The notes under the pieces are model-generated. The model made no database searches and was not told where the DNA came from. It saw only the letters and a program-made list of their open reading frames with translations. This document shows positions 36,740-58,480 of a stretch of 64,000 nt of DNA, piece after piece. Made by a program: the position numbers and the translations under genes. Source of the DNA: Bacteroidales bacterium (GTDB lineage: Bacteria > Bacteroidota > Bacteroidia > Bacteroidales > Tenuifilaceae); the NCBI GenBank assembly GCA_013141385.1, contig JABFRB010000022.1, forward strand, positions 92,106-156,105. The letters are read 5' to 3'. Positions within the stretch are counted from its first letter, which is position 1. Every line of letters starts with the position of its first letter.

Positions 36740-36811
36740 CTACGCTTGTGAATTATTGATAATTGGGAATCAATCGCCAAATCTATTATCCCATGTTATA
36801 ATTTACAATAG

Positions 36812-36905
36812 TTCGGTACTTTTTTTGGTGTATTTTGGTGATTTCGTGATTTCGTGGCTATTATATTGCCACCAATACACGAAAACACAAAATATCACAA
36901 AAACA
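36812..36905. repeat. Diverged relative of the 134-bp palindromic element
   Basis: Starts CAATAGTTCGGTAC like copies 1 and 2, contains a long imperfect palindrome (GGTGTATTTTGGTGATTTCGTGATTTCGTGGC / GCCACCAATACACGAAAACACAAAATATCAC); lies ~75-170 bp upstream of the minus-strand start at 36739. Confidence 0.4.
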
Positions 36906-37015
36906 ATATGTTACAAATCAATAATAATGCTTTATTGAACTATTGAATTTATATAAGTACAAAATAATTCGTATTGCTATCCTTTCCTCAATAACTTTGT
37001 TACGAGTTGAGATTT

Positions 37016-37615
37016 TTATTTTTGAATTCCTATTTCTTTTATTACTAATTTATAATTCTCAGCTATTTGCAAGCTTATCCATCCGTAAGTTGTGTCCTGT
37101 AATTGGATCATCCGAAAACCCATGTATAGATCTTCTGCATCCCAAAAATTACTGTTTATTCCAATATTATCTGGATCATAGCTACTTAGGTATGTTTGAA
37201 GTGATGTAGTAATCCAAATATGTTTATTATCAATTGTATCATTTAGATGTTTTGGCGACATAAATATTTCAATCTTTTTATCTCTAGAAATGCATTCAAT
37301 TTTGCATCCTTCGGTGGGGGTAACATAACCGATAGGATGACCCATTCCATAAAATGAATAGAAGTCTAAATCTTTACTCCCATTAAAATCAGCATCAATT
37401 AGTAGTGTTCCAGAATAACCTGTTGATGGTATTCCATTAACATCATTATTTGCCAACGTTATATGTAAATCAGGTTCATAATCTTTAACTAACATGGTAT
37501 TATCTTTCTGACCTGCAAGAATAAAACTATTCCTGTGATCCTCCTCGTTTTTTTCGCAACCTGCCAAAGTAATAGCGAAAAGTATTAATAATCCAAGATG
37601 TAATATATTTTTCAT
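37016..37615 (-). CDS. Hypothetical lipoprotein
   Basis: 199 aa; lipobox LAGC after signal peptide MKNILHLGLLILFAITLAGC. Confidence 0.4.
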   Translation of the reverse strand: MKNILHLGLLILFAITLAGCEKNEEDHRNSFILAGQKDNTMLVKDYEPDLHITLANNDVNGIPSTGYSGTLLIDADFNGSKDLDFYSFYGMGHPIGYVTPTEGCKIECISRDKKIEIFMSPKHLNDTIDNKHIWITTSLQTYLSSYDPDNIGINSNFWDAEDLYMGFRMIQLQDTTYGWISLQIAENYKLVIKEIGIQK

Positions 37616-37770
37616 TCTATTCAGTATAAAGTTTTGTTTTGCAGCAAATTAACATATTAAAAAATGATTGTATTTTGAGATATAAAACATCATTCTATCC
37701 TTCGTTATAAAGCTACTTAAAAGCGATGTACTTACCAAACACTCATCATCTCATACTTTTATGGACACTA

Positions 37771-37854
37771 GTGAAAAATGAAAAGATTTTGGAGTTTGGG
37801 TAAACGATAAGGCTATCGCAAAGTGCGATTATTGAGATGCAATGGTATTTTATT
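37771..37854. repeat. Solo copy (A) of the ~84-bp cassette-terminal element containing the ATCGCAAAGTGCGAT palindrome
   Basis: GTGAAAAATGAAAAGATTTTGGAGTTTGGGTAAACGATAAGGCTATCGCAAAGTGCGATTATTGAGATGCAATGGTATTTTATT; the same element recurs at 37968-38050 and 39231-39312. Confidence 0.55.
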
Positions 37855-37910
37855 TCAGTGCAATTTAGGATTGTTGTTTAGTAATGGGGCTTGATTCATC
37901 AAAGGGGAAA

Positions 37911-37973
37911 GGGAAAAGGGAAAAATGAAAAGGGAAAAGGGAAAAATGGAAAGGGAAAAGGGAAAAATGGAAA
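37911..37973. repeat. Purine-rich minisatellite, 3 x 21 bp (GGGAAAAGGGAAAAATGRAAA)
   Basis: Three exact or near-exact tandem units read directly. Confidence 0.7.
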
Positions 37974-38106
37974 GTGATAAGGTTTTGGAGTTAGGATGCA
38001 CAATAAGGCTATCGCAAAGTGCGATTATTGAGATGCAATGGTATTTTATTTGAGCATGTTTTTACCTTTTATCAAGTTTAATGATTCTGATTTTATCTTA
38101 GGATTT

Positions 38107-38457
38107 TTAGCTCCTTAAAATCTTATCCATTGCTTTACCCTTTGCCAATTCATCAACTAGTTTATCTAGGTAACGAATTTTTTGCATAAGCTCGTCTTCA
38201 ATTTCTTCAACTCGATAACCACAAATTACGCCCATGATTTTTGAAACATTTGGATTAATCTGCGGTGCTTGGGCGAAGAAGGTTTCAAAATCATTATTCT
38301 TATCGATTTGTTGTTGCAATGTTTGTTGATCATATCCTGTTAGCCAAAAAATAATGGCATCTACCTCAGCTTTTGTGCGTCCCTTTTTCTCCGTTTTTTG
38401 TATATACAACGGGTATACACTTGCAAAAGAGGTTTTAAATATTTTTGTATTATCCAT
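38107..38457 (-). CDS. Small conserved hypothetical protein (cassette gene 3, copy 1)
   Basis: 116 aa, [47 protein letters not shown]…; conserved-looking, function unknown (DUF-type). Confidence 0.4.
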
Positions 38458-38609
38458 TTTGCTTGTTATTAATTATCAAGGTTAATTTCCTTTAGTCAGC
38501 AACTAGTTAACTTTGTTGTTCTTGCGTTCCTAATGAGTCAACAGCCCAAATACAACCGAGCGTTTTGTGCGAGTTCGGCGGAGCCAATAAATACGCTGTC
38601 AGTGCTAGG

Positions 38610-38918
38610 CTATATTTTCTTGATTTTCTCTGGGTTCTGTCTACAATCAAAGACTGATGCAATTGTGATAAGATTTTCCTTCTTCCAATAAATGATTTTG
38701 TAATTGCTTTCAACCAGATATCTAAATTCTTCTGGGTAGTTGCTTAAAAGTTCTTCTTTCGGGCCTGCTGATGGATTGCTTTCTAGGATGGTAACTTTGT
38801 CAAGAATTCTATTTATTATCTTTCTTGCAATTCGTGAACTAACCTCTAATGAATAGTAATCAAATATGTCTTTGAGTTGCCTTTCAGACAGTTCAGACCA
38901 TTCAATCCTTATTTCCAT
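38610..38918 (-). CDS. Type II toxin, ParE/RelE family (copy 1)
   Basis: 102 aa; …YKIIYWKKENLITIASVFDCRQNP… typical RelE/ParE C-terminal region; 10-bp overlap with upstream antitoxin ORF. Confidence 0.7.
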   Translation of the reverse strand: MEIRIEWSELSERQLKDIFDYYSLEVSSRIARKIINRILDKVTILESNPSAGPKEELLSNYPEEFRYLVESNYKIIYWKKENLITIASVFDCRQNPEKIKKI

Positions 38919-39151
38919 GTCTTCACCTTCTTCTTAAGTTCTTGGTGAGTGATAACTCGACCAGTATCGCAATCACATTTCGCTTGGTCAATCATTTCAT
39001 GGAATTCGTTCAACGACATGGGTTTTAAGTTTTTTTCATGAGAAACTTTCTTTTCCTGCTTAATGAAAGATTCAATTTTAGTGATTAGACTTTCGTCACT
39101 AATACGTAGGAATTCTTCAATTAGAATCAGTTTTCTCGCTTGAATATTCAT
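38909..39151 (-). CDS. Putative antitoxin / addiction-module component (copy 1)
   Basis: 80-aa ORF directly upstream of and overlapping the toxin gene; small, charged, helical. Confidence 0.5.
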   Translation of the reverse strand: MNIQARKLILIEEFLRISDESLITKIESFIKQEKKVSHEKNLKPMSLNEFHEMIDQAKCDCDTGRVITHQELKKKVKTWK

Positions 39152-39167
39152 GTCCTTAGTCTTTCTG

Positions 39168-39175
39168 CAAATATA
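39168..39175 (-). promoter_or_regulatory. Bacteroidetes-type -7 promoter box TATATTTG (minus strand) for cassette copy 1
   Basis: RC of CAAATATA; matches the TAnnTTTG consensus, 17 bp upstream of the antitoxin ATG. Confidence 0.35.
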
Positions 39176-39230
39176 AATGTTTTCGAAGGGAAAAGCATCG
39201 TCTTGTCGTTTTTTTAGCTTGACGCTAACG

Positions 39231-39312
39231 GGAAAGTGAAAAGGTTTTGGAGTTGGGGTGCACGATAAGGCTATCGCAAAGTGCGATTATTGAGATGCAA
39301 TGGTGTTTTATT
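39231..39312. repeat. Cassette-terminal element copy C (ATCGCAAAGTGCGAT palindrome at 39273-39287)
   Basis: Same ~82-bp sequence as 37771-37854 and 37968-38050. Confidence 0.55.
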
Positions 39313-39360
39313 GGAGCGCATTTTCACTTTTTTATCAAGTTTAATGATTCTGATTTTATC

Positions 39361-39720
39361 TTAGGATTTTTGGCTCCTTAATATCTTATCCATTGCTTTT
39401 CCCTTAGCCAATTCATCAACTAGCTTATCTAAGTAACGAATTTTTTGCATAAGCTCGTCTTCAATTTCTTCAACTCGATAACCACAAATTACGCCCATGA
39501 TTTTTGAAACATTTGGATTAATCTGCGGTGCTTGGGCGAAGAAGGTTTCAAAATCATTATTCTTATCGATTTGTTGTTGCAATGTTTGTTGATCATATCC
39601 TGTTAGCCAAAAAATAATGGCATCTACCTCAGCTTTTGTGCGTCCCTTTTTCTCCGTTTTTTGTATATACAACGGGTATACACTTGCAAAAGAGGTTTTA
39701 AATATTTTTGTATTATCCAT
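39361..39720 (-). CDS. Small conserved hypothetical protein (cassette gene 3, copy 2)
   Basis: 119 aa, identical to copy 1 except a 3-aa longer C-terminus. Confidence 0.4.
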
Positions 39721-39872
39721 TTTGCTTGTTATTAATTATCAAGGTTAATTTCCTTTAGTCAGCAACTAGTTAACTTTGTTGTTCTTGCGTTCCTAATGAG
39801 TCAACAGCCCAAATACAACCGAGCGTTTTGTGCGAGTTCGGCGGAGCCAATAAATACGCTGTCAGTGCTAGG

Positions 39873-40181
39873 CTATATTTTCTTGATTTTCTCTGGGTTC
39901 TGTCTACAATCAAAGACTGATGCAATTGTGATAAGATTTTCCTTCTTCCAATAAATGATTTTGTAATTGCTTTCAACCAGATATCTAAATTCTTCTGGGT
40001 AGTTGCTTAAAAGTTCTTCTTTCGGGCCTGCTGATGGATTGCTTTCTAGGATGGTAACTTTGTCAAGAATTCTATTTATTATCTTTCTTGCAATTCGTGA
40101 ACTAACCTCTAATGAATAGTAATCAAATATGTCTTTGAGTTGCCTTTCAGACAGTTCAGACCATTCAATCCTTATTTCCAT
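39873..40181 (-). CDS. Type II toxin, ParE/RelE family (copy 2)
   Basis: Identical protein to 38610-38918. Confidence 0.7.
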   Translation of the reverse strand: MEIRIEWSELSERQLKDIFDYYSLEVSSRIARKIINRILDKVTILESNPSAGPKEELLSNYPEEFRYLVESNYKIIYWKKENLITIASVFDCRQNPEKIKKI

Positions 40182-40414
40182 GTCTTCACCTTCTTCTTAA
40201 GTTCTTGGTGAGTGATAACTCGACCAGTATCGCAATCACATTTCGCTTGGTCAATCATTTCATGGAATTCGTTCAACGACATGGGTTTTAAGTTTTTTTC
40301 ATGAGAAACTTTCTTTTCCTGCTTAATGAAAGATTCAATTTTAGTGATTAGACTTTCGTCACTAATACGTAGGAATTCTTCAATTAGAATCAGTTTTCTC
40401 GCTTGAATATTCAT
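40172..40414 (-). CDS. Putative antitoxin (copy 2)
   Basis: Identical protein to 38909-39151. Confidence 0.5.
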   Translation of the reverse strand: MNIQARKLILIEEFLRISDESLITKIESFIKQEKKVSHEKNLKPMSLNEFHEMIDQAKCDCDTGRVITHQELKKKVKTWK

Positions 40415-40430
40415 GTCCTTAGTCTTTCTG

Positions 40431-40438
40431 CAAATATA
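40431..40438 (-). promoter_or_regulatory. -7 promoter box TATATTTG for cassette copy 2
   Basis: Same sequence and spacing as in copy 1. Confidence 0.35.
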
Positions 40439-40589
40439 AATGTTTTCGAAGGGAAAAGCATCGTCTTGTCGTTTTTTTAGCTTGACGCTAACGGGGGTTC
40501 AAAATCCTAATATTAGCGTTGAGTCGGATTTTTAATCCAGCTCAACGTTTGGATTTTATATGTCCGAGTTGACGAGGATAGATGGGGCA

Positions 40590-43109
40590 TTATATCATTT
40601 TTAATATATCTGATGCAACCTCATTAATATGAATAAATGTGACTCTATCACCAATTTTCAAGGATAAATCAAAAGACTCAGAAAAATATTCATTTCTTGT
40701 TACTAAATCTGAAATAATTACTAAATCTTTGTCAACATCTGTAACAATTCCCTCAAGTCTTAATTCTTTGTTTAAAAAATCAAGTTGATTGCGTGAAATT
40801 GTTGTCACTTGAGATATCCACTCCCCAGTTTCCCTATCTCGACTAGTACAGATTTTCCTAGTATCCTTTAAATAATGAGTTTGAACATCCATTAATATAC
40901 AAAAAGGATATGTAAATTCATATGTTGAACCTCTACTTCCTGCACCAACTTCTGCTAATTTTACAATATTAAACTCTTCGTTCTTAGCATGAAGAGAAGA
41001 AACTAAACTAGTTAGATTTGGTAATCTAAATCGGTAAGTTATTTGTTTTTTACATGCTTTTGCTAATGAATTAGCTATTTCTCTTTCCGACAAATCATAA
41101 CTTGACAAAAGATTTTGTGAAAAATCTTTTATGATACAAATAATATCACTCTTATTATATAATCTATTTTTTGAATAACTTGTCGAAGTAATACACTTAT
41201 CCATTAGACTTGCAAATCTACGAGAGGAACCATCTGAAGCATAAATCAGCTGTTCCAAAGCGTCATGTTCTAAACCTCCATTTATTTCAATTATATCAGA
41301 AATTTTAGTTGGTTCAATCTTGTTAATTGATACTACTTTTAAGTAATTATTAACTAACTCAATACAATACTTTCGATAAGCTTCATAATCATCACTAGTT
41401 TTTACATTGTAATCAAGGTTAACAATAGAGCCAAACCTATCCTCATTTAGAATATCTGAAATATCATTAGGATAAACAGCTATTCTAGTAAAATAAGGAC
41501 CACTATTTCTTATAGAATTCATCCAACGCAAAAAACCACTTTCAGAATCATGAAAGAATTCTCTAGGAAAAACAGGAGCAACTTCATCAATTAATAATAA
41601 AACATGAGTAAAATAGTTAGACATATTTTCCTTCAGTGCTACACCAAGCTTCCAGATAATACTTCCTTCCTGATTTGATAAGACTTTCAACTTTTGTTTG
41701 ACACGAAATAAGGCATTTCTAAATTCTGCAGATTTTAATTCTTTATCTTTTATTTCTAAAGCAGATAAGGTCGATTCAAAAATTAATTTTTCAGCAGATT
41801 CAATTATTGTACTTATTGCACTTTTCCATTCAGAACTATGAATTAATGTGAAATTTACAAGTACGGGAAATGATTCACTAACTTTTTTGTCTTTTACATT
41901 GATATCAAATGTATAATTGCCAAATACATTTAAATATCTTAATAGCATTGTTTTGCCAGAACCTCTACTTCCTCTAATTATTGCATCACCTGTGGGTCTA
42001 ACCGCACCCTTATTTCTACCCTCACTAGAAACAAACAACTGAATTATTTGATTTGTTGAGATTTTTTCTGCATTATTAAAAGTAAAGGGATTTCGTTTAA
42101 TTTTGAATTTTTCAATTAAAGTCAAATCCTCCATACTATTAGAAGAAAATGTATCAAAATTAATGATGTAAGGCAAATCAAATACGCTTGGATTTAATTC
42201 AAGTGAATTATCCTCAGTCCAAGCTCCTAAACCCAGTTTGCCACGTTTATTAGGGCTATAAGCTCTCCAATATGATTCAAGTTTTTTATTATGCGAATCC
42301 AAAATGTGAATAGTATATTGATTTTGAATTCCATCAGTCCGTTGACTTCTATCAACTCCAGCAGACCCTGAACCGGAATATATAATAACTTTACCATCAT
42401 GTTTAACCTCTTGACACCTATTTTCATGGATATGACCAGTAAATAATATGTTATAACCATTTTCAATTAAAATAGTCTCAATCTCGTAAGAATTATTAAT
42501 AATTGAATTTGATTCCTTTCCATTTTGCTCTATCCTATGATGACATATACATATTTTTGTATAATCATCATTTCCATTGCCAAGTTTCCTAACAATACTA
42601 TTAACAAGCTTCTCTGAATCTACATATCCACAATGATTTAAATGGTCTTCCTTTTCACAACTGTTTATGAACAAAAACTCAATTCCTAATCTATGATCAA
42701 AGAACCGATTATAAAACTCGGGACTTATCCTAGAGTATTTATTACATGTATTATATGCAAACTTATTATAATTACTATACTTCAGATTAACATCGCCAAC
42801 ATCTGATGATATCTCTGCTAATTTCCAATTAATATCATGATTCCCTGGTACACTTAAAACAGAGTCTTTGTCAATAGATATTTTTCGTGCTAAATTATTG
42901 ATAACATTCTCAGCGTCTAAAAATTCATCTGCATGCGCAGTTTCAGTTATATCACCTGTTAACAAAATATAAATTGGCAAAAACTGAAATTTATCCGCCA
43001 TAAAATTGATATCATTTGCAATCGATTCATAAATTTTAGAAGGATTTCCAAAACGATGTTTTGCTCCAAATTGCAAATCTGACAATTGAATAATTCCGTA
43101 TCGTATCAT
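40590..43109 (-). CDS. Calcineurin-like metallophosphoesterase (Mre11/SbcD-like) fused to P-loop NTPase with C-terminal unknown domain; candidate defense protein
   Basis: 839 aa; N-terminal motifs SDLQFG, LTGDITE, VPGNHD, ICICHH, FTGHIHEN (phosphoesterase motifs I-V); Walker A IIRGSRGSGKTMLL and Walker B HVLLLIDEV in the middle third; ~300-aa C-terminal region without recognisable motif; AT-rich codon usage. Confidence 0.6.
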   Translation of the reverse strand: MIRYGIIQLSDLQFGAKHRFGNPSKIYESIANDINFMADKFQFLPIYILLTGDITETAHADEFLDAENVINNLARKISIDKDSVLSVPGNHDINWKLAEISSDVGDVNLKYSNYNKFAYNTCNKYSRISPEFYNRFFDHRLGIEFLFINSCEKEDHLNHCGYVDSEKLVNSIVRKLGNGNDDYTKICICHHRIEQNGKESNSIINNSYEIETILIENGYNILFTGHIHENRCQEVKHDGKVIIYSGSGSAGVDRSQRTDGIQNQYTIHILDSHNKKLESYWRAYSPNKRGKLGLGAWTEDNSLELNPSVFDLPYIINFDTFSSNSMEDLTLIEKFKIKRNPFTFNNAEKISTNQIIQLFVSSEGRNKGAVRPTGDAIIRGSRGSGKTMLLRYLNVFGNYTFDINVKDKKVSESFPVLVNFTLIHSSEWKSAISTIIESAEKLIFESTLSALEIKDKELKSAEFRNALFRVKQKLKVLSNQEGSIIWKLGVALKENMSNYFTHVLLLIDEVAPVFPREFFHDSESGFLRWMNSIRNSGPYFTRIAVYPNDISDILNEDRFGSIVNLDYNVKTSDDYEAYRKYCIELVNNYLKVVSINKIEPTKISDIIEINGGLEHDALEQLIYASDGSSRRFASLMDKCITSTSYSKNRLYNKSDIICIIKDFSQNLLSSYDLSEREIANSLAKACKKQITYRFRLPNLTSLVSSLHAKNEEFNIVKLAEVGAGSRGSTYEFTYPFCILMDVQTHYLKDTRKICTSRDRETGEWISQVTTISRNQLDFLNKELRLEGIVTDVDKDLVIISDLVTRNEYFSESFDLSLKIGDRVTFIHINEVASDILKMI

Positions 43110-43650
43110 ATTTTACTTTTTATCAAGGTAGTGTTTTATTGCCTTGCGCATAACTTAATAGGGTTTTATCCCCTGTTTTCCATAACAAAATTAGCAAAAA
43201 ACATGAATGCCCAAAATTGGAAAGATCCAATAATTGAAATCCTTATAATCAAATATAACTCTTTTTATAAATTATCATTGGGCTATACTTTAGAATTATA
43301 GAACAACCCATTGTCCTATTCTATAATTCACTTTTATATTATTTCTCCAGTTTGGATTGGGAATTATTGTAGCATCCAATTTTCTTGCTTCTCTGTGTCG
43401 TTATTTTAAATATTTACATATATTTACGAAACTAATCTTCAAGTATGAATCGTTGGCAGCTTAAATTTAAGATTAAAATTAACCGCACCTGCCTCTGCGT
43501 TCGCTAATTGGATATTATCCCAATATCCCTATTTTCAATATTTTAAATTTCATTTTTCATTATTGATGCCCGCTGTTAAGCATTTTAACAGTTTGGTTTT
43601 ATACGATAATTCAATTATTACATTCTATAATCATCTAAAATAAACATAAT

Positions 43651-56611: not shown

Positions 56612-56830
56612 GATAGAGAGGGGGCCGGGGGGTGAGTCTCTTTTATCCAAACTTACTCTCCCCCAGCCCCTCTCTCTGAGCAAGAGAGAGGGGAGTGAAG
56701 TAACCAGCAGCATTCTAACTCACCATTTTCCTTCATTTCTATATTCGATAGTTTGTAAATGAAAAAAACATTCGCTCAAGAAATGCGTAATCATAACTTC
56801 AAGAATAGAGAGGGGTCGAGGGGTGAGTTT
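56612..56830. repeat. Composite MITE-like repeat copy (inverted terminal segments AGAGAGGGGGYCGGGGGGTGAGT / ACTCACCCC…CCCCTCTCT)
   Basis: Contains both the GAGAGGGGGCCGGGGGGTGAGTC arm (56613-56640) and the forward hairpin arm (56660-56700) plus the shared tail …CAGCAGCATTCTAACTCACCATTTTCCTTCATTTCTATATTCGATAG and a second AATAGAGAGGGGTCGAGGGGTGAGT arm at 56806-56830. Confidence 0.5.
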
Positions 56831-56875
56831 TTTTTATTTATATTTTCATTATCTTGCATTTTAAATGTCTTAATT

Positions 56876-57241
56876 ATGTTTATACCTTCTACCATTGTTC
56901 AAATAGCAAGAGAATTAAGAAGAAATCAAACTCCCGAAGAGGAAATACTATGGCAAGCCTTACGAAATCGTAAGTTGGGTGGTTTTAAATTCCTTCGACA
57001 ACACCCTATAGTTTATGACAAAAATAACCCGCTCCCTGGTTTTATTGTTGCCGATTTCTATTGTGCCGAAAAACAGCTAATCCTTGAACTGGATGGTAAA
57101 ATTCACGATTACCAAAAAGATCATGATCAAAAAAGGGATTTCATAATGGAAACTAAAGGCTATTGGGTAATTCGTATCAAGAATGAGGAGGTGGACAATT
57201 TAGATCAATTATTAGAAAAGATTCGTAATGTGTTAGAATAG
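56876..57241 (+). CDS. DUF559 (Vsr/restriction-endonuclease-like fold) domain protein
   Basis: Start moved to internal Met (MFIPSTIVQIARELRRNQTPEEEILWQ…) because the long-ORF 5' extension runs through a repeat arm; …FIVADFYCAEKQLILELDG…WVIRIKNEEV typical of DUF559. Confidence 0.55.
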   Translation: MFIPSTIVQIARELRRNQTPEEEILWQALRNRKLGGFKFLRQHPIVYDKNNPLPGFIVADFYCAEKQLILELDGKIHDYQKDHDQKRDFIMETKGYWVIRIKNEEVDNLDQLLEKIRNVLE

Positions 57242-57254
57242 TGGTTTTCGGTTA

Positions 57255-57321
57255 ACTTACTCACCCCCAACCTCTCTCTCTGGGCAAGAGAGAGGGGAGT
57301 GAAGTAACCAGCAGCATTCTA
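57255..57321. repeat. MITE/REP-like repeat copy interrupted by the IS630 insertion
   Basis: TTACTCACCCCCAACCTCTCTCTCTGGGCAAGAGAGAGGGGAGTGAAGTAACCAGCAGCATTCTA| ; the tail of the element (ACTCACCATTTTTCTTCATTTCTATATTCGATA) resumes at 58483 after the IS. Confidence 0.6.
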
Positions 57322-58480
57322 ATACCATCTTGAAATATAAAATAGTCCAATATATTTAATGTCGTTTTTTTTTGTATATTTGGACTATAATATAATTCAA
57401 ATATGTCAGCACCCAAAGTCGTTCATATTGGCGAAAGCCTTCAATACCTGAGGGGTCTTTTAAAAAAGACCACCCCCTTTATGGCTCCGCGGGTTAGGAT
57501 GCTTATCGAGATGAAAAAGGCGCAGGATGTGGGTGTGTCTAAGCGGGCACTGGCTGAGCTGGTGGGCGTAAATCACAACAGCATCCAAGCATGGCGGAAT
57601 CTATACCTGTCAGGAGGGGTAGCGCTTCTGATGACTCACAAGAAAACGGGCTATAAGCCGACCAAGATTTCAAAGCAGGAGCATGCAGCCCTTGATCGCA
57701 AGCTCAGAGACCCACAGAGCGGCATTCGGGGGTACACGGAGCTGATGCGCTGGCTTGAGCAGGAGTTTCATCGGAGCGTTAGCTACAATACCCTCTACAA
57801 ATACTGCGTACGCGAGTTCGGCTCATCCGTCAAGGTTGCTCGCAAGAGCCATATCAGAAAGGATGCTGCGGCTGTTGAGGTTTTTAAAAAAACTTCGCTA
57901 AAACCTGCCGCCATGCGATTGCCAGCAAAGGGGGGCGGTTCGAGAGGGTGAACCTTTTCTTCCAGGATGAAAGTCGCTTTGGCCTATTCACCAGGAATGG
58001 TAAGGCGTTGACGGCCAAAGGCGTCAAGCCCATCTGCCCCTTTCATCAGGTTTTTAAGTCCCTCTACCTATACGGCGCATTCTCGCCCGTAAATGGGGAC
58101 TACTTTATGCTGGAGCTACCATCGTGCAACGCCGATCTTTTTCAGGTATTCCTTGATGAGTTCTCACAGCAGGACCCCGATGAACTCAAGCTGATGGTCT
58201 TGGATAATGGCGCCTTTCACAAAGCCATGAAGCTTAAATCCCGGATAACATCATTCCTATTTTCCTCCCTCCATACTCCCCGGAGCTGAATCCAGCCGAA
58301 AAGGTATGGGCTAAGCTTAAGCGTGACTTTACCAACCGGCTGTTCAAAACCCTTGATGAGCTGGATGCTTACCTCTGCAACCTTTCATGCTCGATAACAA
58401 AAAAAGAGGTCATGAGCATAGGAGCGTACAGTTACATTATTTCAAACCCATTTTGGACTATTATATATTTCAATTTGGTA
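57322..58480 (+). mobile_element. IS630/Tc1-mariner-family insertion sequence (~1.16 kb) with ~28-bp TIRs and TA target-site duplication
   Basis: Left end TACCATCTTGAAATATAAAATAGTCCAA vs RC of right end TACCAAATTGAAATATATAATAGTCCAA; TA at 57320-57321 and 58481-58482; internal second copy of the TIR core (TATATTTGGACTA, 57378-57390); GC clearly higher than surroundings. Confidence 0.7.
57403..58470 (+). pseudogene. IS630-family DDE transposase, disrupted by two -1 frameshifts
   Basis: Frame 1 (57403-57951) HTH region; frame shift at or after a G6 run (57930-57935); frame 2 (57948-58289) contains …FFQDESRFGL…; second shift at CTTAAATCCC (~58235) where adding one A restores …KLKIPDNIIPIFLPPYSPELNPAEKVW…. 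Confidence 0.65.

Follow-up and report, generated by a model that had tools for sequence, protein, structure and literature searches.

A tandem segmental duplication with a putative fossil toxin-antitoxin cassette in a Bacteroidales genome

The stretch of DNA analysed here (64,000 nucleotides, referred to as the window) belongs to a metagenome-assembled genome (MAG) of a Bacteroidales bacterium deposited at NCBI (246-kb contig, proteins NOU18692-NOU18699) and contains two head-to-tail copies of a unit that is built around a toxin-antitoxin (TA) gene pair. The two units, of 1263 and 1264 bp, lie at 37969-39231 and 39232-40494/5 and are 98.6% identical, in agreement with the tandem duplication described in a first-pass annotation. 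Every gene of both units is encoded on the minus strand, and in the direction of the genes each unit consists of a promoter, an open reading frame (ORF) of 80 aa, a 102-aa toxin gene, a spacer of 152 nt, a DUF2200 gene and an element of ~100 bp, which we call E. Unit 1 (39232-40495, minus strand), proximal to a gene for an 839-aa protein, carries a cassette 5' core and a -7 box, followed by the antitoxin gene (40172-40414), the ParE toxin gene (39873-40181), a DUF2200 gene of 119 aa (39361-39720) and the E copy between the units, E3 (39231-39332). In unit 2 (37969-39231, minus strand), distal from the 839-aa gene, the promoter is followed by the antitoxin gene (38909-39151), the toxin gene (38610-38918), a decayed attC recombination site, a DUF2200 gene of 116 aa (38107-38457) and E2 (37969-38070). 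A third, solo copy of E (E1, 37773-37874) is separated from E2 by a short spacer and a 21-bp minisatellite with purines on the plus strand (37906-37982, 3.7 copies by repeat detection); both the solo copy and the minisatellite had already been recognized in the first pass. The array lies, as annotated, directly downstream of and on the same strand as the 839-aa gene (40590-43109, minus strand; Metallophos and ORC-CDC6-like ATPase domains by Pfam), which is outside the repeat and is separated from unit 1 by a hairpin at 40516-40547.

The two units had been called almost base-identical, and this description fits most of their length: a tract of 1,063 bp (38170-39232) is 100% identical to 39433-40495. 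The remaining differences, 17 mismatches and one indel, are all packed into 37978-38169, i.e. into E and the last 63 nt of DUF2200 (Fisher p = 1.5e-14 for the clustering into ~200 bp), with a sharp identity boundary at 38169/38170, so that the array is a mosaic in which ~9% divergence has been kept in the DUF2200 3' end and E. Six of the differences concern the DUF2200 3' end; five are synonymous within the ORF and the sixth converts the stop codon into Gln, which adds 3 aa to the C-terminus of copy 1 and is the only protein difference between the units, as previously stated. Copy 2 has the ancestral length, and comparison with outgroup DUF2200 genes assigns three derived states to each copy. 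The proposed very recent origin of the duplication is therefore compatible with the 1,063-bp tract only. Where the units meet, the novel E3-to-TA junction reads CACTTTCC|CGTTAGCG and joins the pyrimidine tract that follows E (E2 tract: CACTTTCCATTTTT) to the C-run upstream of the cassette core (GAACCCCCGTTAGCG), with an overlap of 0-2 nt (CC microhomology). Head-to-tail units, a novel junction and the assembly-independent support given below together identify a tandem segmental duplication.

The toxin matches the ParE/RelE family PF05016 in Pfam (1.6e-10, 41.9 bits at a cut-off of 23), and its gene overlaps that of the 80-aa antitoxin by 10 bp, confirming the annotated arrangement, while the antitoxin itself has no family match in Pfam, NCBIfam or PADLOC. 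We found >460 toxin relatives by protein search, and homologues of the 80-aa and 102-aa proteins are paired in 84 of 89 fetched loci; an exact-protein look-up of the window toxin returned no contigs. The promoter region (39168-39229 in copy 2, minus strand) is conserved across dozens of loci and comprises a Bacteroidota-type -7 box (TATATTTG; 39168-39175 and 40431-40438, i.e. one per unit, as annotated), the inverted repeat TTTTCCCTTCGAAAA just upstream of it (39180-39194 and 40443-40457, minus strand) and the cassette 5' core. This inverted repeat is kept as TTTTCCCTTYGAAAA in many homologous cassettes and is likely an operator for antitoxin autoregulation. With a toxin of the right fold family, a small overlapping partner upstream, a conserved promoter and a pairing that persists between loci, the genes correspond to ParE/RelE type II TA systems, and the pair probably acts as a normal self-regulated addiction or stabilisation module. 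It differs from the described systems in its antitoxin, which falls outside all families of the three collections.

The ~640-bp TA module recurs in dozens of unrelated contexts, mostly with 77-92% nucleotide identity (~67% in the most distant full-length matches), and its boundaries in these contexts are those of an integron gene cassette. In ~12 loci GTTAG or GTTGG marks the start of the conserved antitoxin-upstream block, and the sequence to the left of it is unrelated; the BLAST alignments of the closer relatives end no more than ~15 nt from this point, which is the start of the window unit; and between unrelated contexts the homology starts exactly at G|TTAGTGCC or G|TTGGGGGC, i.e. at the G|TTRRRY expected of a cassette start. 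Many loci also contain a complementary inverse core right after the toxin stop codon, e.g. GGCACTAAC, which pairs with the module start GTTAGTGCC, or GCCCCCAAC, which pairs with the start GTTGGGGGC. The complementarity of 5' start and post-toxin inverse core is 9/9 in five loci (L098, L101, L121, L126 and L127), among which a compensatory switch is seen (AGTGCC/GGCACT vs GGGGGC/GCCCCC). The bottom strand of the post-toxin sequence in the homologues folds into imperfect hairpins of 130-160 nt with paired AAC/GTT ends and folding energies (dG) of -19 to -24 kcal/mol. One locus, L179 (JGI Ga0209287_10001315, 12.6 kb), is a textbook array that looks complete: it has all its genes on one strand and at least 10 sites of a single attC family (AAC-AGCTGCTAAAA...TTTTTAGCAGCAAAC-GTT), every one of them behind a gene, with the TA homologue as one of the cassettes. 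The R'/R'' chain rule holds there in 8/8 consecutive cassettes: the last bases of each attC complement the first bases of the attC of the next cassette. The gene table of L179, whose array runs off the 12.6-kb contig, lists no integrase family, and none was evident among the large ORFs of several other TA-bearing loci, which were inspected by eye without a profile search. The boundary homology, the covarying cores, the hairpins and the L179 array thus make the TA pair an integron-type cassette by descent, with its own promoter. Chromosomal integrons are well known to contain TA-bearing cassettes (PMC4889954, PMC13108822, PMC11023631).

Besides the TA homologue, L179 contains a DUF6364/PIN TA pair, an IS3-type insertion, a methyltransferase and an AAA_14/DUF4143 protein, as well as a 529-aa ORC-CDC6-like protein with the same Pfam domain as the 839-aa protein of the window. 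The closest relatives of the window TA pair (94% aa identity) are found in L087 and L088 (JGI 3300063055; ENA ERZ27248961), amid other small ORFs on the same strand, among which are antitoxin-like genes and a further ParE pair. There are repeated GGGACACGGTC..CAGCCCGGAC motifs upstream, and these loci probably represent one more cassette array, whose attC sites belong to a different family.

Within the window, the unit edge CCC|GTTAGCGTCAAGC lies within 1-3 nt of the cassette boundary, and the cassette 5' core GTTAGCGTCAAGC (39217-39229 and 40480-40492) has retained GTTAGCG. The region after the toxin (38524-38609 in copy 2 and 39787-39872 in copy 1, minus strand) contains only an attC remnant: the inverse-core remnant TAGCACTGAC at 38598-38607 reads CACTGAC, with AAC changed to GAC, GTTAGCGTC and AGCACTGAC are complementary at 5/9 positions, and no hairpin forms (dG of -5 to -6 kcal/mol with z > 0, compared with -19 to -24 kcal/mol for the homologous attCs). 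An attC of its own is thus present in the homologues of the module and missing from the window copy, and the window TA pair is a fossil cassette that has kept its 5' core and lost its attC. It shares with the type II TA cassettes of sedentary chromosomal integrons and of clusters of attC sites lacking integron-integrases (CALINs; PMC4889954; PMC13108822; PMC11023631) its own promoter and the 5' boundary G|TTAGCG, and its close homologues are true cassettes with covarying R'/R'' ends and attC hairpins in multi-cassette arrays; it differs from them in that its attC is destroyed, that it is fused to a non-cassette gene and that the element repeated beside it is not an attC. Moreover, no intI and no other member of the tyrosine recombinase/Phage_integrase family was found in the 64 kb (ORFs >=120 aa searched against Pfam), a search that the first-pass annotation had proposed for the whole genome, and the surroundings consist of housekeeping genes. 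Since there is neither a pair of attC sites nor intI, the locus is neither an integron nor a CALIN, which contains at least two attC sites (PMC4889954) where the window lacks a second one. The suggested resemblance to an integron-type cassette array therefore applies in part: the TA pair is a cassette elsewhere, but here E is no attC, a recombinase is missing from the 64 kb and the attC of the TA pair has decayed.

The third gene of the unit belongs to DUF2200 (PF09966, 6e-55), which answers the profile search proposed for the 116-aa protein. DUF2200 is an exceptionally well conserved stand-alone gene with 76-89% protein identity across Bacteroidota, Acidobacteriota, Bacillota and Planctomycetota, and its sole solved relative (PDB 3c9p) is uncharacterised. 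Homology to other Bacteroidota DUF2200 loci covers the ORF and 41 nt upstream of it, including a -7-like box (TAACCTTG, 38477-38484, upstream of copy 2). None of the 89 fetched TA loci has DUF2200 next to the TA pair, none of the 80 fetched DUF2200 loci has the TA pair or E next to DUF2200, and no homologue of the 839-aa protein occurs in any of these 169 loci; the third gene thus does not co-occur with the TA pair. The first-pass annotation had described a 3-gene cassette and considered a functional coupling to the 839-aa neighbour, and in view of this synteny neither is supported. An exact-protein look-up of the window DUF2200 returned no contigs. When the unit was compared with plasmid and phage sequences by BLAST, DUF2200 alone gave matches. 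At the nucleotide level DUF2200 is ~78% identical to Listeria, with 68% for a haloarchaeal replicon.

The three copies of E lie within 1.6 kb, and no other copy is present in the 64 kb. They share an identical core of 40 nt (ATAAGGCTATCGCAAAGTGCGATTATTGAGATGCAATGGT; 37807-37846 in E1; 0 matches expected by chance), and E3 is no closer to one copy than to the other (93% identity to E2 and 93% to E1). E had been introduced as a conserved palindrome and likened to an attC-type site, and we found neither property. The only hairpin common to the three copies has a 6-bp stem (ATCGCA-AAG-TGCGAT; 37815-37829 in E1), and a 10-bp outer inverted repeat (AAAGTGAAAA/TTTTCACTTT) flanks E3 only. An attC is recognized by R'' (RYYYAAC) at the 5' end, a complementary R' (GTTRRRY) at the 3' end, one long bottom-strand hairpin with R/L boxes and occurrence after many different cassettes. 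None of the E copies has AAC/GTT end cores: neither E2 nor E1 has GTT at its end, none of the copies is closed by an AAC...GTT pair, and E3 abuts GTTAGCG solely through the start of the next TA unit. The copies fold with dG values of -9 to -16 kcal/mol, only E3 closes and no R/L pairing is conserved, whereas control attCs reach -19 to -24 kcal/mol with paired R boxes; and E follows only DUF2200 and an ORF-less spacer. A relaxed heuristic attC scan, which recovers 6/6 control sites (a stricter first heuristic missed known sites), gave nothing at E1-E3 in the region 37600-40700, where its sole matches are weak and lie inside the DUF2200 coding sequence.

Exact 22-mers and 20-mers of E had 0 matches in genome, metagenome and viral contig collections, so E is rare. 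Rfam (gathering threshold for the whole window; E-value threshold for 37600-40650) and a tRNA scan returned nothing meaningful in terms of known RNAs. E resembles dispersed repeats of the REP (repetitive extragenic palindromic) or MITE (miniature inverted-repeat transposable element) type in being short and non-coding with a small hairpin, and it differs from them in being confined to a single locus and in lacking both conserved terminal inverted repeats and target-site duplications. The minisatellite beside E1 is an expansion of the CTTTTCAYTTT-type pyrimidine tract found after E on the coding strand. We also considered the spacer between E2 and E1, which shares TTGATGAAT with the DUF2200 tail, as a decayed third unit and rejected it, as 549 of 2,000 shuffles score equally well.

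A true dispersed repeat exists elsewhere in the window, namely a 146-nt intergenic hairpin repeat at 15812-15957, 30809-30954 and, inverted, 36806-36945. It forms a single long hairpin (~-40 kcal/mol with the default RNA parameters of ViennaRNA) with terminal inverted repeats (CAATGGTTCGGTAA...TTACCGAACTATTG) and is MITE/REP-like in look, without a match in Rfam. The identity is 95% between two of the copies and 73% for the third; the repeat is also present in the related genomes L173 and L175-L178.

These relatives (L173-L178), which are 89-92% identical to the window, allowed us to follow E in other strains. In four samples (L175-L178, ~90% nucleotide identity) a full E is located upstream of the orthologous gene for a 199-aa lipoprotein, together with the spacer known from the window, in which the CTTTTCAYTTT pyrimidine repeats are unexpanded. 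The same four contain a partial second copy, E2', and synteny with the window breaks right after the E hairpin; the sequence adjoining E2' is unrelated to the DUF2200 flank and has no match in the window, and the contigs end 57-168 nt further on. A derived T is common to E2 and the E2' of the relatives, and therefore E2 is an old resident of the locus. L173 and L174 have no E; they are homologous to the window exactly as far as the edge of E1 (37770). The presumed tie of E to cassette boundaries is thus broken by the relatives, in which E has no cassette beside it. E is a repeat that is native to a hypervariable intergenic region and older than the split from the relatives, rather than a site brought in by a cassette. 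In L173 (1-600) and L174 (1-100), E and the minisatellite (~37771-37970) have given way to a 42-nt tandem repeat (CATTTTGCCCTTCCGAGAGGTTACGAAAGCATGAAATGGATT) of ~12 copies, in which gene calling placed a spurious ORF of 136 aa, and the region upstream of the lipoprotein gene is a tandem-repeat hot spot across strains. An exceptional constraint on the E core was suspected from its 39/40 identity to the relatives and discarded, as the adjacent promoter region is also 95% identical.

Taken together, the locus is an ordinary segmental duplication with a fossil TA cassette and not an active cassette array. We think that it probably arose, with moderate confidence, by fixation and decay of the TA cassette beside DUF2200-E, followed by tandem duplication, divergence and partial homogenisation. 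As the comparison with other loci shows, a ParE-type integron cassette became fixed in the chromosome and lost its attC, keeping its Bacteroidota-type promoter and GTTAGCG. It lies beside the independent DUF2200 gene with its own promoter, followed by E, which the related genomes show to be at home upstream of the lipoprotein gene in this lineage. The segment TA-DUF2200-E would then have been duplicated head-to-tail through a non-homologous, illegitimate junction of the microhomology type, with DUF2200 and E as passengers. Unequal crossing-over via E, named in the first pass as the alternative to a cassette array, cannot have made the first copy because there is no E upstream of the proximal unit. 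The copies would subsequently have diverged for a long time under purifying selection, before 1,063 bp were homogenised, presumably by gene conversion or unequal exchange between the units. Indeed, the six differences in the DUF2200 3' end with their 3:3 split of derived states call for long separate evolution, or for one patch imported from a strain of ~10% divergence, and an identical tract of 1,063 bp beside a diverged patch calls for recent gene conversion or unequal exchange. Once two units were present, the array could expand and contract by ordinary homologous recombination. The 0-2 nt junction between head-to-tail units and the perfect-identity tract beside a diverged one, together with the possible changes in unit number, are features shared with tandem segmental duplications under concerted evolution.

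Several points weigh against this history. The outer end of the duplicated segment falls only 1-3 nt from what was once a site-specific recombination core, which would not be expected of a random endpoint (~4% chance, a rough estimate for a random endpoint in the ~95-nt gap), and this coincidence is a hint of a site-directed event, which retains a small probability. E3 shows no greater similarity to E2 than to E1 or the relatives' E, so that the history of E must be older or more complex than one duplication. The copy number and its heterogeneity in the population also bear on the account, and at least two copies are established. Finally, a single assembly fits both an old duplication with conversion and a recent duplication with an imported diverged patch.

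The latter sequence of events, i.e. a recent duplication after which a patch of ~200 bp (DUF2200 3' end and E) was imported by homologous recombination from a strain of ~10% divergence, is possible and in our judgement rather unlikely. It would account for the sharp boundary at 38169/38170, and the ~9% divergence of the patch equals the genome-wide divergence to L173-L178; moreover, E3 is closer to the E of the relatives (96% over 72 nt) than to E1 or E2. However, the E of the sampled relatives is not preceded by DUF2200, so that there is no known donor for the coding part of the patch, and the derived changes are split evenly between the two copies.

It is improbable that the tandem layout or the copy number is an artefact of repeat resolution or strain mixture in the metagenome assembly. 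The source is a MAG and the identical tract of 1,063 bp exceeds the short-read length, so that the two copies represent the minimal path through the assembly graph; at least two units are present, and their number could be higher or vary between cells. On the other hand, the Logan unitigs from run SRR11487826 agree with the window base for base and end 30 nt inside the repeat at both outer edges (L172 = 40466-43202; L171 = 36898-37833; 30 nt = k-1, k=31), i.e. an independent assembly graph branches exactly at the unit start and inside E1. Unitigs that stop k-1 inside the repeat imply that the reads contain two left-hand contexts of the unit start and therefore that the E3-to-TA junction exists. 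The same follows from E3 itself, which has its own variants and unit sequence on both sides, and each unit has distinct and internally coherent 3' variants.

We also regard it as very unlikely that the locus is an active or recent site-specific cassette array, in which E would be a non-canonical attC or the site of another recombinase, with two insertions of TA-DUF2200 and the ORF-less stretch from E2 to E1 as a third cassette. Such an array would explain why E stands three times in a row in the same orientation, at the 3' end of each unit, and why the 5' edge of the unit is the integron core G|TTAGCG, with CCCG|TTAGCG at both the E3 junction and the outer edge of the array; the loss of synteny at the E1 edge in L173/L174 and immediately behind the E hairpin in L175-L178 (E2') and the cassette-borne relatives of the TA pair also point in this direction. 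Against it stand the missing cores and R/L-box pairing of E with its weaker folding, the scan that recognizes all controls and nothing at E, the lack of a recombinase in the 64 kb and the absence of E k-mers from the sequence collections. In addition, E flanks only one kind of unit, and the relatives keep E without cassettes.

As a further option, which we consider highly unlikely, this Bacteroidales lineage could have in E a hitherto unrecognised hot-spot element for recombination or insertion, at which modules such as the fossil TA cassette with DUF2200 would be captured and multiplied by a mechanism independent of attC. The features of E that are relevant here are its core of ~40 nt, the perfect 6-3-6 palindrome ATCGCAAAGTGCGAT, the slippage-prone pyrimidine tracts at its edge and the synteny breakpoints at the E edge and right after the hairpin. 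Lastly, a functional three-gene system of antitoxin, ParE and DUF2200, perhaps with the upstream phosphoesterase-ATPase, that was amplified for dosage is suggested by the tight co-directional gene order, by two intact DUF2200 copies with synonymous changes only within the ORF and by the weak similarity of the 839-aa neighbour to an anti-phage phosphoesterase, but is extremely unlikely given the synteny of all 169 loci, the stand-alone distribution of DUF2200 across phyla with its own conserved -7-like box and the 152-nt spacer with a dead attC that separates it from the toxin.

The 839-aa protein carries an N-terminal calcineurin-like phosphoesterase domain and matches the NCBIfam model DS9_1 'anti-phage phosphoesterase' (NF053862) with 1.3e-18, a result far under the cut-off; its similarity to a PADLOC effector model is weak (6e-8). 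When the protein collection is clustered at 90% identity it stands as a singleton, and its gene may be an accessory defence gene that the relatives do not have beside E. At a distance of ~17 kb from the array (56759-57951, plus strand), a DUF559 (endonuclease-like) ORF precedes the gene for a 182-aa HTH_32/HTH_33 protein that resembles an N-terminal transposase fragment and is the only mobile-element-like trace in the window.

In itself the locus is one more TA module duplicated in a chromosome and matters little. It cautions that repeated flanking elements together with TA genes can mimic a cassette array. It also provides an example of cassette domestication, in which the core GTTAGCG was kept, the attC was lost and the cassette was fused to a housekeeping-type gene, while the whole is still amplifiable by ordinary duplication. 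Beyond the window, the analysis points to an abundant family of cassettes with ParE, the 80-aa antitoxin and a Bacteroidota-type promoter in large attC arrays of environmental metagenomes, and this family is of interest for how TA cassettes help to stabilise chromosomal integrons (PMC13108822, PMC11023631).

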